NCBI GenBank assembly: GCA_028713575.1
Contig: JAQTOB010000011.1
Coordinates: 1 to 18,531, forward strand
Reading direction: 5' to 3'
Origin: Patescibacteria group bacterium
GTDB taxonomy: Bacteria; Patescibacteriota; Patescibacteriia; UBA2591; UBA6264
Length of the DNA stretch: 18,531 nucleotides
Below are positions 2,324-16,303 of the stretch, one piece after another (within the stretch, counting starts at the first letter, position 1; the number at the start of each line of letters is the position of its first letter). The notes beneath the pieces were generated by a model. It did not search any database. It saw nothing but the letters and a program-made list of their open reading frames with translations, and had not been told where the DNA came from. A program made the translations under genes and the position numbers.

Positions 2324-3590
2324 AGTTATCTTTTAAAACTATCCTCAGCCCGATAATTAACCAAAAAACAACAGCCAGATCATTCTTAAAATACGGCGTA
2401 TCAACCAAGCCATGGACCAAAATACAAACCATCGCGCCCATGACTGCGCCATTTAAAATTATATCTCTATTTTCCAAATTTTTAAACCCTTGTTTGAAAA
2501 ACCTTATTAAAATCCAAACAAAAACAATCAAACCAACCAAGCCCACTTCCAGCCAAATGGCCAAAAACAGATTATGCGGATATGGCTGAGGCGGAGCATA
2601 GAAATTTCTTCCGTCACGAGCGATAAAACTATTGGCCTGATAATCGGGGATTAGCCTTTCATATCCGTCCAATCCCGCGCCCAACACTGGTGAAACCTTC
2701 AACAGGGAAACAGCGCCGGACCAGATGTTCAAGCGGAACTGACCGGATAAATCCTGCAAAAGCGCCTTTTCCAAAAAATATTGGCGGGAAAATGGCCAGA
2801 CCATGATTAACAAAAAGGCAATAATCAACCCGGTTAAAACGTATTTCCTGGTTTTTTTCAGAACAACACCCCAAAAAGCCAAGCCAGCAAAAACGCCGAT
2901 AAGCGCGCCCTCTGAACGGGCTAAAACCAGCGCCCAAAAGGTAATAAAAAGAAAGACAAAACAACAAACAACTGACCGGATTTTCCCGCGGAAATTCACA
3001 ATCCCGCCCGCAACCAGAACGATAAGCGGCGCCAAATACAAACCCAAAAAATTAGGATGGGAAAACGGACCAGTCGCCCGCCATACCTGCGCCCGTCCCC
3101 AGACCTCGGTGCTGAAAACTCCCCCTCCCAGCCATTTTTGTAAAATCGCCCAAACAGAACAGCAGAAAGCGGAAAGGCCCAGGGTAAAAATCAATGTTTT
3201 TTTGTCCTGATCGTTTTTTATCAAATCCAACAAAACTATTAAAAACATAGCCGGCTCAATAAAATAGGCCCTCCAAACTCCGGCCGCGGCCCTTAATTCC
3301 GGCGCCACGAACATAGAGATAGTCGCCACAAGCAGCCACAAACAAATTAACCAGCGCCATCCGCTTAATAAATTGTTAAATCGTTTAATTGTTAAATTGT
3401 TAAATCGTTTTATCAGCCAAACCATAAAGAGAATCAAAATCATCAACTCCAAAAAAGTAAAAGGAATTCCGACAAACGAAAATTTTATCTGATAAGTCGG
3501 CAATAAAAACAATGTTAAATATAAAGCATGCCTCGGCTTAAACCAAGAGAGAAAAATGTAAAAAATAAAAAATAAAAAATAAAAAATCAT
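2298..3590 (-). CDS. O-antigen ligase (Wzy_C/RfaL-like) family polytopic membrane protein
   Basis: 430 aa with many TM segments. It carries the family-typical PHNLFLAIWLEVGLVGLIVFVW motif. An ATGA start/stop overlap links it to the flippase gene. Confidence 0.7.
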   Translation of the reverse strand: MIFYFLFFIFYIFLSWFKPRHALYLTLFLLPTYQIKFSFVGIPFTFLELMILILFMVWLIKRFNNLTIKRFNNLLSGWRWLICLWLLVATISMFVAPELRAAAGVWRAYFIEPAMFLIVLLDLIKNDQDKKTLIFTLGLSAFCCSVWAILQKWLGGGVFSTEVWGRAQVWRATGPFSHPNFLGLYLAPLIVLVAGGIVNFRGKIRSVVCCFVFLFITFWALVLARSEGALIGVFAGLAFWGVVLKKTRKYVLTGLIIAFLLIMVWPFSRQYFLEKALLQDLSGQFRLNIWSGAVSLLKVSPVLGAGLDGYERLIPDYQANSFIARDGRNFYAPPQPYPHNLFLAIWLEVGLVGLIVFVWILIRFFKQGFKNLENRDIILNGAVMGAMVCILVHGLVDTPYFKNDLAVVFWLIIGLRIVLKDNYENQISNN

Positions 3591-5032
3591 TTATTTGAAT
3601 TTAAAACGTCTTTTAGTAAATTCCTATCTATTCCCTTAAAAAAATAAAGCGACACCCCATAAACCGCTGCGCCCAAAACAATTGAAAAAACTAAGTTAAA
3701 ATTTTGACAAAGCATCAACACTCCTGACATTGCCAGGCCGGCCATCAAACTTTTAAAAAAAATTTTAAGATTGAACGAGATTCCGGTAGTCTTCCGAAAT
3801 AAAAGAAAGGCAAAAACGAACATCAGTATTTCGCTGAATACCGTTACCCAAGCCGCGCCCCAATAAGAATACTTCGGGATAAAAACGAAATAGCCTATTA
3901 AAGATAAAGCCATAACCAAAAAATAAAAGGGAAGTATTTGTTTTTGTTTTCCCAAGCCAACGGCCAAATTCTTAAAAAGTTCGGCAACAAACAAAATGCC
4001 GGCGGCGATAATTACCACTTTAAGGACGTCTCCGGCCGGACCGAATTCCCGTCCGCCGAGTAAAATCATTATCCTTCCCCCGAGAATAATTGTTCCCAAA
4101 ACCATAGGCAAGGAAATGGCGACCAAAAGGTCAAAACTTTTTTGCACGAGATTCTTTAGTCGCTGACTTTGTTTTTGTTGCCAAGCGCTCGTCATTTTCG
4201 GCAAAATCAATCCCAAAAAAAGCGGCGGCACCGTAATCAATACCTCTAAAATTCGGTAACAAGCGCCATATAATCCTACTTCTTCCGGTGAATGGTAAAA
4301 AGATAGAATCAAAGTGTCCGCCTTGAAATAAAAAACGTTTAGGACAATAGCTAAACCCACGGGCCAGGATTGTCTGATTATTTCCTTCCAAAAAGAAAAA
4401 TCAAAACCGAATTTCAAAGCTGTCTTTTTCGGAACGGAAAAAAATAATATCAAAAAATTTAACAAATGACCAAGTCCAAAAACGCTTAGGACCGCATAAA
4501 AACTGAAGTTGCGCCGGACGAAAATAATCATCAATGTCAGAGTAATTATCTTTCCCCAAATCTCTCCCCAAAAAATTTTCTTCGTCTGCAATGTCTGCTG
4601 ATAAAAAGCGGAAAGCATCTGGATCAAGGTGCAAAAGAAAAAAGAGCCGGATAAAATTCCTACGGCCGTTTTGACCATTCCAGAATAAGGAAGAAAAAGA
4701 CAAAAAACAAAGGCACCACCGTAAAAAATAAAAGCGGAAAAAAATCTTAAGGTAAAAATATTGTTTAAGACAAAACTCGTCCTAACCGGTCTCTCTTGTT
4801 CTGATAAAGAATCTGTCTCTCCTAGATAGCGTAAAGTTATCAAATAAAGGCCGAAATCGGCGATAATGCCGAAAATCTGCAAAAAAGCGACTGCCGTGGA
4901 ATAATAACCGTAATCTTTCGGCCCCAAATAGCGCATCAGCAGGGAAATGACGAAAAGTCCTAAAAACAAGGCTAAGACGCGACCGATTATTTGGATAATA
5001 AAATTTTTAGCAACAGAACGAGTAAGGGTCAT
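3587..5032 (-). CDS. MOP-superfamily polysaccharide/oligosaccharide flippase (Wzx-like)
   Basis: 481 aa with about 12-14 hydrophobic segments. It has the typical N-terminus (NFIIQIIGRVLALFLGLFVISLLMRYLGPKDYGYY). It is the first gene of the envelope operon. Confidence 0.7.
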   Translation of the reverse strand: MTLTRSVAKNFIIQIIGRVLALFLGLFVISLLMRYLGPKDYGYYSTAVAFLQIFGIIADFGLYLITLRYLGETDSLSEQERPVRTSFVLNNIFTLRFFSAFIFYGGAFVFCLFLPYSGMVKTAVGILSGSFFFCTLIQMLSAFYQQTLQTKKIFWGEIWGKIITLTLMIIFVRRNFSFYAVLSVFGLGHLLNFLILFFSVPKKTALKFGFDFSFWKEIIRQSWPVGLAIVLNVFYFKADTLILSFYHSPEEVGLYGACYRILEVLITVPPLFLGLILPKMTSAWQQKQSQRLKNLVQKSFDLLVAISLPMVLGTIILGGRIMILLGGREFGPAGDVLKVVIIAAGILFVAELFKNLAVGLGKQKQILPFYFLVMALSLIGYFVFIPKYSYWGAAWVTVFSEILMFVFAFLLFRKTTGISFNLKIFFKSLMAGLAMSGVLMLCQNFNLVFSIVLGAAVYGVSLYFFKGIDRNLLKDVLNSNK

Positions 5033-11851: not shown

Positions 11852-11870
11852 ACCGAGCACTCAATTTATT
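11852..11870. repeat. Left arm of a perfect 19-bp inverted repeat bracketing the GIY-YIG ORF
   Basis: ACCGAGCACTCAATTTATT is the exact reverse complement of 12101..12119. It overlaps the GIY-YIG stop codon at 11866..11868. Confidence 0.9.
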
Positions 11871-12095
11871 CCTCTAAGCTATATTTAAAACGCTCTTTGA
11901 GATGACGAATTGCTTGACCTCTTTGTTTTAATTTTTTTTCTCGATTTCTCGCATCTTTTTCTGATTTGTAGGCTTCGTAATAAATAAGTTCGGGGTTTTT
12001 CTTTCTATGTTCTTTAAATCTTCTTTTTAAATCATCGGTGTAGCCTATATAGATTTTTTTCTTTATCTGATTTTTAATTATTACACGTAATACAT
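11866..12095 (-). pseudogene. Small GIY-YIG (URI-domain) nuclease gene with a 1-nt frameshift at codon 5
   Basis: The minus frame reads ...IIKNQIKKKIYIGYTDDLKRRFKEHRKKNPELIYYEAYKSEKDARNREKKLKQRGQAIRHLKERFKYSLEE*. ATG TAT TAC GTG (MYYV) at 12095 is one base out of frame and runs into TAA TAA. No ATG, GTG or TTG start exists in the main frame. Confidence 0.7.
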
Positions 12096-14932: not shown

Positions 14933-15132
14933 GGTACGGCTGATCTCCGCCAGCGGGCGGACAGACTACCTTTGGCGGAGACCCCACCTACCCGCTCTTC
15001 TTTTACGCTATTGAAATGGCAGGTTATCTAAGAAAGAATGCCTTGATGATTATTCAAAAAGGTATTCCGTAGCTAAATCATTCCAAAATTTTAACAAAGG
15101 ATAATTAGCGAAGGATACCCCTACCCGCTCCA
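14933..15132 (+). ncRNA. Unassigned structured segment between tRNA-Gly and a terminator; contains two tRNA-Gly-3'-end-like strings
   Basis: There are competing helices: CTCCGCC (14945..14951) can pair with GGCGG (14956..14960) or GGCGGAG (14974..14980). A long imperfect hairpin runs from GGTATTCC (15061) to GGATACC (15119). CCTACCCGCTC occurs at 14987..14997 and 15120..15130, the second followed by CA. I found no tmRNA, SRP or RNase P motifs. Confidence 0.3.
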
Positions 15133-15179: not shown

Positions 15180-15208
15180 TTGCCAAAATATGATTTATTT
15201 GTTAATAT
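15180..15208 (+). promoter_or_regulatory. Sigma70-like promoter TTGCCA-N17-TAATAT for tRNA-Phe
   Basis: The -35 is at 15180..15185 and the -10 at 15203..15208. The tRNA starts at 15248. Confidence 0.5.
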
Positions 15209-15247: not shown

Positions 15248-15538
15248 GCCGAGGTAGCTCAGTGGTAGAGCAAATGGCTGGTTTTCGGCCCTTTTAATGG
15301 TAACATTAAATGTAAACCAGGTGAAATCGGGGAAACCTGATGAAAAAAAGGCAATCCCGAGCCAAGCCCTTTTAGAGGGAAGGTGTAGAGACTATCCCGT
15401 AGGGAGTACTCTAAATATTTAGAGGAAGCGCCTGGAATCCTAATAATTTAGGATTATGATATAGTCCGAACCTTTGGGAAACCAAAGTAAAAATTAAGGA
15501 AAACCATTGTGTCGGCAGTCCGATTCTGCCCCTCGGCA
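15248..15538 (+). tRNA. tRNA-Phe(GAA) interrupted in the anticodon loop by a 219-nt group I intron; CCA not encoded
   Basis: Exon 1 (15248..15279) is GCCGAGG-TA-GCTC-AGTGGTA-GAGC-A-AATGG-CT. Exon 2 (15499..15538) is GAAAA-CCATT-GTGTC-GGCAG-TCCGATT-CTGCC-CCTCGGC-A. Joined, they give a canonical 72-nt cloverleaf with loop CU-GAA-AA. Confidence 0.85.
15280..15498 (+). ncRNA. Group I self-splicing intron, IC3-like (tRNA-intron type), with no internal ORF
   Basis: Core strings are nearly identical to the Anabaena tRNA-Leu and Azoarcus tRNA-Ile introns: GGCAATCCCGAGCCAAGCC and GGAAGGTGTAGAGACTAT. P7 pairs GACTAT with ATAGTC. There are GNRA-capped hairpins (TTTAATG-GTAA-CATTAAA, CTTTGG-GAAA-CCAAAG). 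P1 pairs exon GGCU with the guide GGCC, placing a U.G wobble at the 5' splice site. The terminal G is at 15498. Confidence 0.85.
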
Positions 15539-15552
15539 TCTGTTAACGATTA

Positions 15553-15581
15553 TTGACGTGAATAGAACTCCAGATTATAAT
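15553..15581 (+). promoter_or_regulatory. Near-consensus promoter TTGACG-N17-TATAAT for the endonuclease-like ORF
   Basis: The -35 is at 15553..15558 and the -10 at 15576..15581. The spacer overlaps the left arm of the 12-bp inverted repeat. Confidence 0.55.
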
Positions 15582-15609
15582 TAATATATTATTATGTATC
15601 TGGAGTTCT
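15564..15609 (+). terminator. 12-bp perfect inverted repeat AGAACTCCAGAT ... ATCTGGAGTTCT with a 22-nt AT loop, downstream of tRNA-Phe
   Basis: The arms are at 15564..15575 and 15598..15609, followed by TATTTTAAT. It could terminate the tRNA-Phe transcript and/or occlude the overlapping promoter. Confidence 0.4.
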
Positions 15610-15629: not shown

Positions 15630-16058
15630 ATGCAAACCAAAAAACAAAAAGCAATTCAATTAAGAAAGCTAGGTAAAAGTTACAATGAAATTACAAAAAG
15701 ATTGGGGGTCCCTAAAAGTACTTTATCTACATGGCTTAAAGGGGTTAAAATGCCTCCGATGGTCCAACAAAAAATTTTAAATAACGCTCAAAAAATCTGG
15801 GCTAAAAGCATCACTGATTACAATAAAAAAAGAGCGTCTTTAATCAAAGACAAATGGCAAAAATTTGAGAAAAAAATCAGCAAAAAAATCAATAAATTAT
15901 CAACGGAAAAAATTAAATTGATTGGCACGGCCCTTTATTGGGCAGAAGGTTATAAAAAAACGAGATGGACTGCAATGTTTTGTAATTCTGATCCGGATAT
16001 GGTTCATTTAATGATGAAATTCTTTCGAGAAATATGTCTGATACCGGAAAAAAACTAA
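15630..16058 (+). CDS. N-terminal part of an HTH plus LAGLIDADG-like homing-endonuclease-like protein (frame 0)
   Basis: It has a resolvase-type HTH (LRKLGKSYNEITKRLGVPKSTLSTWLKG). LIGTALYWAEGYK resembles a LAGLIDADG motif. The ORF ends at a TAA directly after GAA AAA AAC. Confidence 0.55.
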   Translation: MQTKKQKAIQLRKLGKSYNEITKRLGVPKSTLSTWLKGVKMPPMVQQKILNNAQKIWAKSITDYNKKRASLIKDKWQKFEKKISKKINKLSTEKIKLIGTALYWAEGYKKTRWTAMFCNSDPDMVHLMMKFFREICLIPEKN

Positions 16059-16303
16059 AACCACAAATACAAATTCATGCTAATATCTCTGAAAAAACAG
16101 CTAAACAATATTGGTCGCGAATTAGCAATCTTCCGATAGAACAATTTAGAAAAACACTGAGACAGACTAGTAGAAGCAGTAAAAATATGCGAGTAAAAAA
16201 CACTTTACCGTATGGTGTTTTTAGGATCTATATTTCCGATGTAGAATTGGTCCATAAATTAAAAGGTTGGATTAAAGGTCTTATAGAACAATCTGAAAAA
16301 TAG
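16034..16303 (+). CDS. C-terminal continuation of the same endonuclease-like protein in the -1 frame
   Basis: The frame is open from the A7 run onward (KLKPQIQIHANISEKTAKQYWSRISNLPIEQF...LPYGVFRIYISDVELVHKLKGWIKGL). Fused to the upstream ORF it gives a protein of about 224 aa. Confidence 0.5.
   Translation: MSDTGKKLKPQIQIHANISEKTAKQYWSRISNLPIEQFRKTLRQTSRSSKNMRVKNTLPYGVFRIYISDVELVHKLKGWIKGLIEQSEK

Follow-up and report, generated by a model that had tools for sequence, protein, structure and literature searches.

Does the 219-nt insert that splits a tRNA-Phe(GAA) gene of a Patescibacteria group bacterium remove itself as a group I intron, and is the gene lying just downstream a nuclease that could spread it? 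The locus is part of an 18,531-nt stretch of DNA (contig JAQTOB010000011.1), the whole of which we call the window. Group I introns of bacterial tRNA genes are classically described in tRNA-Leu(UAA), tRNA-fMet, tRNA-Ile(CAU), and tRNA-Arg(CCU). In its default mode ARAGORN called four tRNA genes in the window but missed the split tRNA-Phe gene; run with the -i option, it returned the interrupted gene. The gene, its parts, and a promoter-like site are as follows.

15248–15538, + strand: split tRNA-Phe(GAA) gene (ARAGORN -i: tRNA-Phe(gaa), i(33,219))
15248–15279, + strand: tRNA-Phe exon 1, tRNA nt 1–33, ending in C32 U33, 32 nt (ARAGORN -i, joined-exon cloverleaf)
15280–15498, + strand: group I intron, 219 nt, without an ORF (RF00028; ARAGORN i(33,219))
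15499–15538, + strand: tRNA-Phe exon 2, G34 to A73, 40 nt, CCA not encoded (ARAGORN)
15180–15208, + strand: promoter-like sequence TTGCCA-17-TAATAT with a TG extension, some 40 nt before the tRNA-Phe gene (consensus scan only)

When joined, the exons fold in ARAGORN into a 72-nt cloverleaf with the anticodon GAA, the discriminator base A73, and a 3′ end reading ...GGCA, and the product belongs to the tRNA-Phe class by anticodon and discriminator alike. Across the junction the ligated tRNA would read ...AAUGGCU followed by GAAAACCAUU.... A sequence-only reading of this DNA had proposed both an intron splitting tRNA-Phe(GAA) and exons that join into a proper tRNA-Phe, and the ARAGORN call, together with the RF00028 match given below, upholds the two proposals. 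The same sequence is present at 99.6% identity in a 517-kb JGI contig, an NCBI MAG contig is 100% identical to the window across the intron, and Logan contigs match further parts of the window; since it is found in these independent assemblies, the split-gene sequence is not an assembly artefact. The site at 15180–15208 is a putative promoter of the gene.

If one goes by the joined exons alone, the position of the junction is uncertain by 1 nt, since G stands at both 15280 and 15499. It is fixed between U33 and G34 by the U-1 rule taken together with P1 and P10, in agreement with the insertion point proposed from the letters alone. The elements that define the splice sites are these.

15280–15290, + strand: internal guide sequence GGUUUUCGGCC; direct pairing in 30/30 Phe introns
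15498, + strand: terminal guanosine (omega G); G in 30/30 Phe introns

In P1, positions 15287–15290 pair with the exon sequence GGCU (GGCU/GGCC), and the wobble is that of U33 (15279) with G15287. The 7-bp P10 joins exon 2 GAAAACC to intron GGUUUUC (15280–15286); apart from the wobble, the guide is thus the complement of the anticodon stem-loop as ligated. Both splice-site hallmarks of group I introns, a U in the U.G wobble of P1 and an omega G accompanied by a P10, are thus present, and the P1 with a U.G at the splice site and the terminal G that had been read from the sequence correspond to U33.G15287 and G15498. P1 (4–6 bp) and P10 (4–8 bp) were found in all 30 Phe introns analysed, a set made up of 28 introns from genomes, one from a syntenic strain, and one from a further locus, with the window counted among them. 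The U.G at the 5′ splice site occurs in 27/27 aligned Phe introns, and CU/GAA with U-1 and omega G is common to the window and all of the at least 28 relatives from our genome scan (see below), in two of which the splice calls by ARAGORN were corrected by hand. The guide also tracks the loop of its host: CUGAAAA goes with UUUUC, and CUGAAGA with UCUUC or UCUUU, P10 covarying with tRNA position 37, while the P1 strand of the guide varies with the host anticodon stem. The P1 of the window has only four contiguous pairs, plus G15280–C15286, which we counted against self-splicing.

The body of the intron was compared with known families by covariance model. RF00028 (Intron_gpI) matches positions 15270–15488 on the + strand over the full model (positions 1–253 of 253) with 94.5 bits and an E value of 1.4e-23; the score lies above the gathering score of 50, and the insert is by this measure a significant member of the family, as had been supposed from its letters. 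The core strings quoted in that reading, GGCAATCCCGAGCCAAGCC (15350–15368) and GGAAGGTGTAGAGACTAT (15378–15395), are present as described, and so are P7 GACTAT/ATAGTC and the GNRA-capped P2 and P9. The fold is listed below with its conservation among relatives; pairing statistics cover 45 pairs in 27 Phe introns aligned with MAFFT, and the other helices were compared by anchor-based parsing.

15294–15309, + strand: P2 hairpin UUAAUG-GUAA-CAUUAA, GNRA loop; double changes in 6/6 pairs, 96.9% of cells paired
15317–15323, + strand: P3 5′ strand CCAGGUG, partner 15429–15435; 7/7 pairs in all 29 parsed introns
15327–15384, + strand: P4-P6 domain (Rfam alignment)
15327–15332 with 15355–15360, + strand: P4 UCGGGG/UCCCGA; 100% paired in 27 sequences
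inside the P4-P6 domain, + strand: P5 CCU/AGG with an A-rich loop; hairpin position kept, sequence varies
15361–15384, + strand: P6 GCC/GGU, 100% paired in 27 sequences, and P6a CCCU/AGGG, place kept, sequence varies
15390–15395, + strand: P7 5′ strand GACUAU, partner AUAGUC at 15461–15466; five GACUA/UAGUC pairs invariant in 27 sequences
15395–15424, + strand: insert between P7 and P3′, with P7.1 UCCC-GUA-GGGA (15395–15405) and P7.2 CUCUAA-AUAU-UUAGAG (15409–15424)
15429–15435, + strand: P3 3′ strand CGCCUGG
15436–15455, + strand: P8 hairpin AAUCCUAA-UAAU-UUAGGAUU; hairpin at the same place in 30/30 introns, sequences differ
15456–15466, + strand: J8/7 and P7 3′ strand (AUGAU AUAGUC); columns invariant or nearly so
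15472–15487, + strand: P9 hairpin CUUUGG-GAAA-CCAAAG, GNRA loop; double changes in 6/6 pairs

Over the 45 pairs and 27 sequences, 93.7% of the cells are paired, against 29–49% when the 3′ partners are slid by 1–3 columns. Both sides have changed in 21 of the 45 pairs, and the covariation score is 0.304 compared with 0.116 in shuffles, a value that none of 500 shuffles reached. P3 is fully paired in 29/29 introns, with compensatory changes at three positions and many compensatory combinations. Hairpins P2, P6a, P7.1/P7.2, P8, and P9 keep their place across the relatives while their sequences vary, and the P9 hairpin is missing in about 12 of 30. The core helices P3 to P8, including the P3/P7 pseudoknot, thus have comparative support. 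P7.1 and P7.2 are kept, with covariation, in the relatives that have the same type of insert as the window (L028, L040, L062, L077, L079, L084, L094, and L124); the P7.1 loop of the window has three nucleotides (GUA) compared with GNRA-type 4-nt loops in relatives, a second point that we set against self-splicing. Comparison with L124, from a related strain, gives 97% identity for the intron and 77–89% for the flanks; the six positions at which the two introns differ all fall in loops or joining regions. An intron that is better conserved than its flanks and changes only in loops and joiners argues for selection on the RNA.

With these features in hand, we hold with high confidence that the insert is an ORF-less self-splicing group I intron in the anticodon loop of a Patescibacteria (CPR) tRNA-Phe(GAA), placed between U33 and G34, and an instance of the Phe.2Ug type discussed below. 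Self-splicing is very probable; from the sequence features and established group I chemistry we infer both catalysis and the need for splicing in Phe decoding. The gene would be transcribed as a precursor of about 291 nt, in which the guide (15280–15290) would form P1 with the last bases of exon 1, U33 taking part in the U.G wobble, and P10 with the first bases of exon 2, and so hold both halves of the anticodon loop next to each other. P7 is expected to be the guanosine-binding helix, as established for group I introns in general, and an external guanosine bound there would attack after U33. The terminal G15498 would then replace the external guanosine, the freed 3′-OH of U33 would attack after G15498, and the exons would be ligated into a normal 72-nt tRNA-Phe with release of the intron.

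An intron of this kind has been catalogued before. Williams (2020 preprint) lists “Phe.2Ug” among 17 new split-tRNA types, and the accompanying seed alignment includes “Mba55.Phe.2Ug”, which has a Phe host, the same site, U-1, and omega G. The window intron belongs to this type: it has a tRNA-Phe(GAA) host, insertion at loop position 2 (33/34; CU/GAAAA), U-1, and omega G, and shares with Phe.2Ug the conserved core AAUCCCGAGCC, GGUGUAGAGACUA, AGCGCC, AUAGUCC as well as the presence of an extra structure between P7 and P3′. The claim that a Phe(GAA) host falls outside the classic cases is correct as far as the four classical hosts go; its novelty is not, Phe.2Ug being described in Williams (2020 preprint) and frequent in public genomes. 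When one genome per species was scanned for the P7-insert-P3′-P7′ arrangement, at least 119 loci were found: at least 40 split tRNA-Asn(GUU) genes, at least 28 of tRNA-Phe(GAA) (two hand-corrected), at least 18 of tRNA-Thr(UGU), at least 8 of tRNA-Gln, and at least 5 of tRNA-Leu(UAA), with other hosts making up the remainder. Among the matches listed, the genomes are mostly those of Patescibacteria and the closest relatives are about 72% identical to the window intron. A metagenome scan added 22 further split tRNA-Phe genes. The combination of host and site is therefore known and common, and the window intron is a further member of its type. A 2025 preprint by Nakagawa and colleagues also has, by its title, the tRNA introns of Patescibacteria as its subject. 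Two other groups from the genome scan may be mentioned. In Myxococcota (L012, L088–L090, and L111), tRNA-Leu(UAA) is split at 33/34 and not at the classical 34/35; these introns have a single-hairpin insert between P7 and P3′ and correspond to Leu.2Ug of Williams. The split tRNA-Gln genes of Burkholderiales and other Betaproteobacteria (L009, L013, L014, L053, L074, L078, and L085) have, in their best splice assignment, U-1 and a C, not a G, as the last intron base, which is either a boundary error of ARAGORN or an unusual omega position.

The subgroup of the intron is less straightforward. The IC3 subgroup was reportedly defined by Michel and Westhof in 1990 as being without P7.1 and P7.2, and these helices between P7 and P3′ are a peripheral feature of the IA type. 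Judged by inspection and not by a subgroup classifier, the P4-P6/J6-7/P7 core of the window, AAUCCCGAGCCAAGCC...GGAAGGUGUAGAGACUA, is a nearly exact match to the Leu, Arg, Ile, and fMet IC3 seeds. The 32 nt between P7 and P3′, a segment that the Rfam alignment treats as an insertion, fold as two hairpins; the intron here departs from IC3 and agrees with IA (IA3-like) in the presence of P7.1/P7.2, the one IA trait considered. The intron is an IC3-like core sequence with an IA-type P7.1/P7.2 insert. The label “IC3-like” given by the sequence-only reading accordingly fits the P4-P6/J6-7/P7 core sequence and does not fit the 32-nt two-hairpin insert (15395–15424). In the Williams 2020 seed alignment, the insert columns are filled only in Phe.2Ug, Lys.2Ug, Asn.4Ug, Leu.1Ug, and tmRNA introns. 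Phe introns have two versions of the insert. The Phe.2Ug seed and most relatives carry one hairpin with the conserved loop UGAGYCCCAACAAUAA, whereas the window and about eight relatives have the rarer form with two hairpins, P7.1 + AGUAC + P7.2, which is the usual form in split tRNA-Thr(UGU) and tRNA-Tyr genes.

The classical IC3 introns, namely those of Azoarcus tRNA-Ile(CAU), cyanobacterial and plastid tRNA-Leu(UAA), Agrobacterium tRNA-Arg(CCU), and cyanobacterial tRNA-fMet, resemble the window intron in being small, without an ORF, and inserted in the anticodon loop, in having GNRA loops on P2 and P9 and a P4-P6/J6-7/P7 core of almost the same sequence, and in possessing a guide sequence that spans both exon ends. 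The cyanobacterial tRNA-fMet intron (fMet.2Ug) even shares the 33/34 site. The window intron differs from them in its host tRNA, in having P7.1/P7.2, which they lack, and in its P3 (NNNGGUG/CGCCNNN), which is unlike that of Azoarcus-type introns. In the alignment of Williams, the same P7–P3′ extra-helix columns are occupied in the IA3-type introns of the tmRNA T-loop in Clostridium botulinum and others (Cbo40.tmRNA, Tsu4.tmRNA); however, their host RNA and site differ from those of the window, and their P4-P6 and J6/7 core is far less window-like than that of the IC3 tRNA introns.

The second part of the question concerns the gene downstream of tRNA-Phe. Its features in the window are as follows.

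15630–16303, + strand: frameshifted gene for a 224-aa protein, HTH plus a C-terminal domain of unmatched fold (defined by the continuous ORF of relatives)
15553–15581, + strand: promoter-like TTGACG-17-TATAAT between tRNA and ORF (consensus scan)

The gene reads as two overlapping ORFs, 15630–16058 and 16034–16303, with the break at an A7 run (16048–16054); in relatives it is a single continuous ORF of 220–235 aa. If one base is added at the A7 run, the result is a 224-aa protein whose whole length aligns at 92% identity with an intact protein of the same size, encoded at a syntenic locus in which the intron is also present. Compared with the intact copy in L124, the gene has lost 1 nt at the frame break, a deletion common to all three assemblies of the strain. 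The deletion creates A_AAA_AAC followed by TAA (16048–16057), a −1 slippery heptamer of canonical form that lies in the correct frame, and expression of the split ORF by −1 frameshifting is conceivable; given a 1-nt deletion compared with an intact close relative, a pseudogene is the simpler reading. The site at 15553–15581 is a putative promoter, judging from its match to the consensus. Between the 3′ end of tRNA-Phe and the ORF start there is an imperfect 23-nt inverted repeat, AGAACTCCAGAT...ATCTGGAGTTCT (15564–15609), whose 5′ arm overlaps the TTGACG-17-TATAAT site; termination, operator function, and protein binding are candidate roles for it. The gene is described here as a neighbour of the intron.

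The sequence-only reading called this an endonuclease-like gene lying 92 nt downstream. The ORF starts 91 nt past tRNA-Phe, and the protein offers nothing of a nuclease in the searches made. For the reconstructed protein and 18 relatives, Pfam, NCBIfam, and PHROGs recognised the N-terminal HTH as the only known part; they gave HTH families and no nuclease family. A PDB profile search likewise returned HTH matches and none to the C-terminal domain, and hhalign comparisons with I-CreI and I-SceI gave probabilities below 1%. Two confident structure models (pLDDT 89 and 94) had no Foldseek match at E<1e-3 and no nuclease fold among their hits, the best of which were OmpA-like domains with a TM score of about 0.44. 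In these profile and model searches, neither a family profile nor a nuclease fold was found for any of the LAGLIDADG, GIY-YIG, HNH, and PD-(D/E)xK homing endonucleases, and the description as endonuclease-like is therefore unsupported. A LAGLIDADG identity had been considered on the strength of “LYWAEGYK...NSDPEM” and was dropped after the profiles, the PDB search, hhalign, and Foldseek all proved negative.

The protein belongs to a large family of 5,972 clusters at 50% identity (E<=1e-3), almost all unannotated. In its members, of about 224 aa, the HTH is joined to a conserved alpha/beta domain at the C terminus, in which the motifs LYWAEG, NSD, and PYG are invariant, and the family sits in Patescibacteria tRNA gene clusters. 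We collected loci of the family (L124, L128, L131, L134, and L136–L215), among them 80 metagenome loci, 74 of which are informative. The HTH gene is directly beside tRNA-Phe(GAA), 13–100 nt away, in about 54 of these 74; 32 of the approximately 54 adjacent tRNA-Phe genes are without an intron and 22 have one. Other copies lie beside tRNA-Glu, tRNA-Val, or tRNA-Pro, or have no tRNA gene within range. The family is clearly linked to tRNA-Phe genes, whether the intron is present or not; a link to the intron or to its mobility is only hypothetical. In a locus with an uninterrupted tRNA-Phe and an HTH gene (L131), a large serine recombinase gene (3236–4870, − strand) directly follows the next tRNA gene (Gly), which hints at an integrated element in that tRNA cluster.

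A rival reading is that the gene keeps the intron mobile. The HTH protein, acting as a free-standing nuclease of the homing type, would cut tRNA-Phe alleles that have no intron, in or close to the insertion site, and repair would copy intron and gene together, as in collaborative (“trans”) homing. The frequent placement next to tRNA-Phe(GAA) speaks for it, as do homologues adjoining 8 of the at least 28 Phe introns of the genome scan and two copies adjoining split tRNA-Tyr genes in Omnitrophota. The sporadic distribution of the family, its position either upstream or downstream, and the occurrence of frameshifted and tandem-duplicated copies are typical of selfish genes. There is also a precedent: a passage in PMC3984707 describes collaborative homing of the ORF-less psbA intron and the adjacent free-standing F-CphI in cyanophage S-PM2 (Zeng, Bonocora & Shub 2009). 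In contrast to that system, the protein encoded beside the window intron has no recognisable nuclease domain or fold and its gene is frameshifted, while the family occurs just as often next to tRNA-Phe genes that have no interruption; the 32 intron-less neighbours indicate that the HTH gene needs no intron. With no nuclease signature in Pfam, NCBIfam, PHROGs, the PDB profiles, hhalign, or Foldseek, we consider homing of this kind unlikely. Equally speculative is the wider idea that the family is a new free-standing selfish gene that targets tRNA genes by means of an unrecognised nuclease or recombination domain, with the Phe intron riding along or protecting tRNA-Phe. If true, it would amount to collaborative homing in bacterial chromosomes, seen at several stages: loci with the gene alone, loci with both gene and intron, and loci such as that of the window, where the intron stands beside a decayed gene. 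The anticodon stems of tRNA-Phe genes beside the HTH gene hold no clue to a nuclease target: those with an intron differ from intron-less ones only by a G/C-richer lower stem, which the pairing of P1 leads one to expect.

The decay of the neighbouring ORF could also mean that the whole locus is a dead copy, a tRNA-Phe pseudogene with a decaying intron, while an uninterrupted tRNA-Phe elsewhere serves Phe decoding. We regard this as very improbable. The exon cloverleaf is flawless, with GAA and A73, and the window keeps every core position that does not vary among 27 relatives; the conservation of the intron over its flanks between strains, with changes confined to loops and joining regions, is likewise not what a dead copy would show. 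No second Phe gene was found in 50 split-tRNA-Phe loci within the 2–8 kb of sequence available per locus. Complete CPR genomes, furthermore, had tRNAs for all amino acids, some of them with hard-to-detect group I introns (Lui et al. 2021, PMC8172020). The idea that the insert is some other element, or an archaeal- or eukaryal-type intron spliced by proteins, and resembles group I introns by chance is effectively refuted by the covariance-model match (E 1.4e-23) and the covariation supporting the P3/P7 pseudoknot core, and is further contradicted by the 33/34 site (the canonical site of protein-spliced tRNA introns is 37/38), by a P1, P10, and omega G that fit group I chemistry, and by the bacterial host, proteins of the window carrying the NCBI label “Patescibacteria group bacterium”.

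If the self-splicing intron sits in the sole tRNA-Phe gene of the organism, all phenylalanine decoding would rest on a ribozyme. For several tRNAs of Patescibacteria and cyanobacteria such dependence on a ribozyme is already accepted, and the tRNA-Phe intron thus adds an example and not a principle. Because standard tRNA finders miss the split gene, such genomes appear to lack tRNA-Phe, and recognition of the intron restores a complete tRNA set in their annotation. Of the leads from this locus, the most open is the HTH gene family that accompanies tRNA-Phe genes.

Two minor features of the window lie outside the tRNA-Phe gene. A small GIY-YIG-like reading frame (…IYIGYTDDLKRRFKEH…; about 11866–12078, − strand) is located between genes for a MacB-type permease and an ABC ATPase; in the window it lacks an ATG, GTG, or TTG start codon, and a 70-aa GIY-YIG protein is called in the NCBI MAG contig. 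Between tRNA-Gly and tRNA-Phe, a 133-nt segment (14998–15130) is missing from the otherwise identical NCBI MAG contig (L121). Copies of an 11-nt direct repeat, CCTACCCGCTC (14987–14997 and 15120–15130), flank this segment, which is a strain-level indel.
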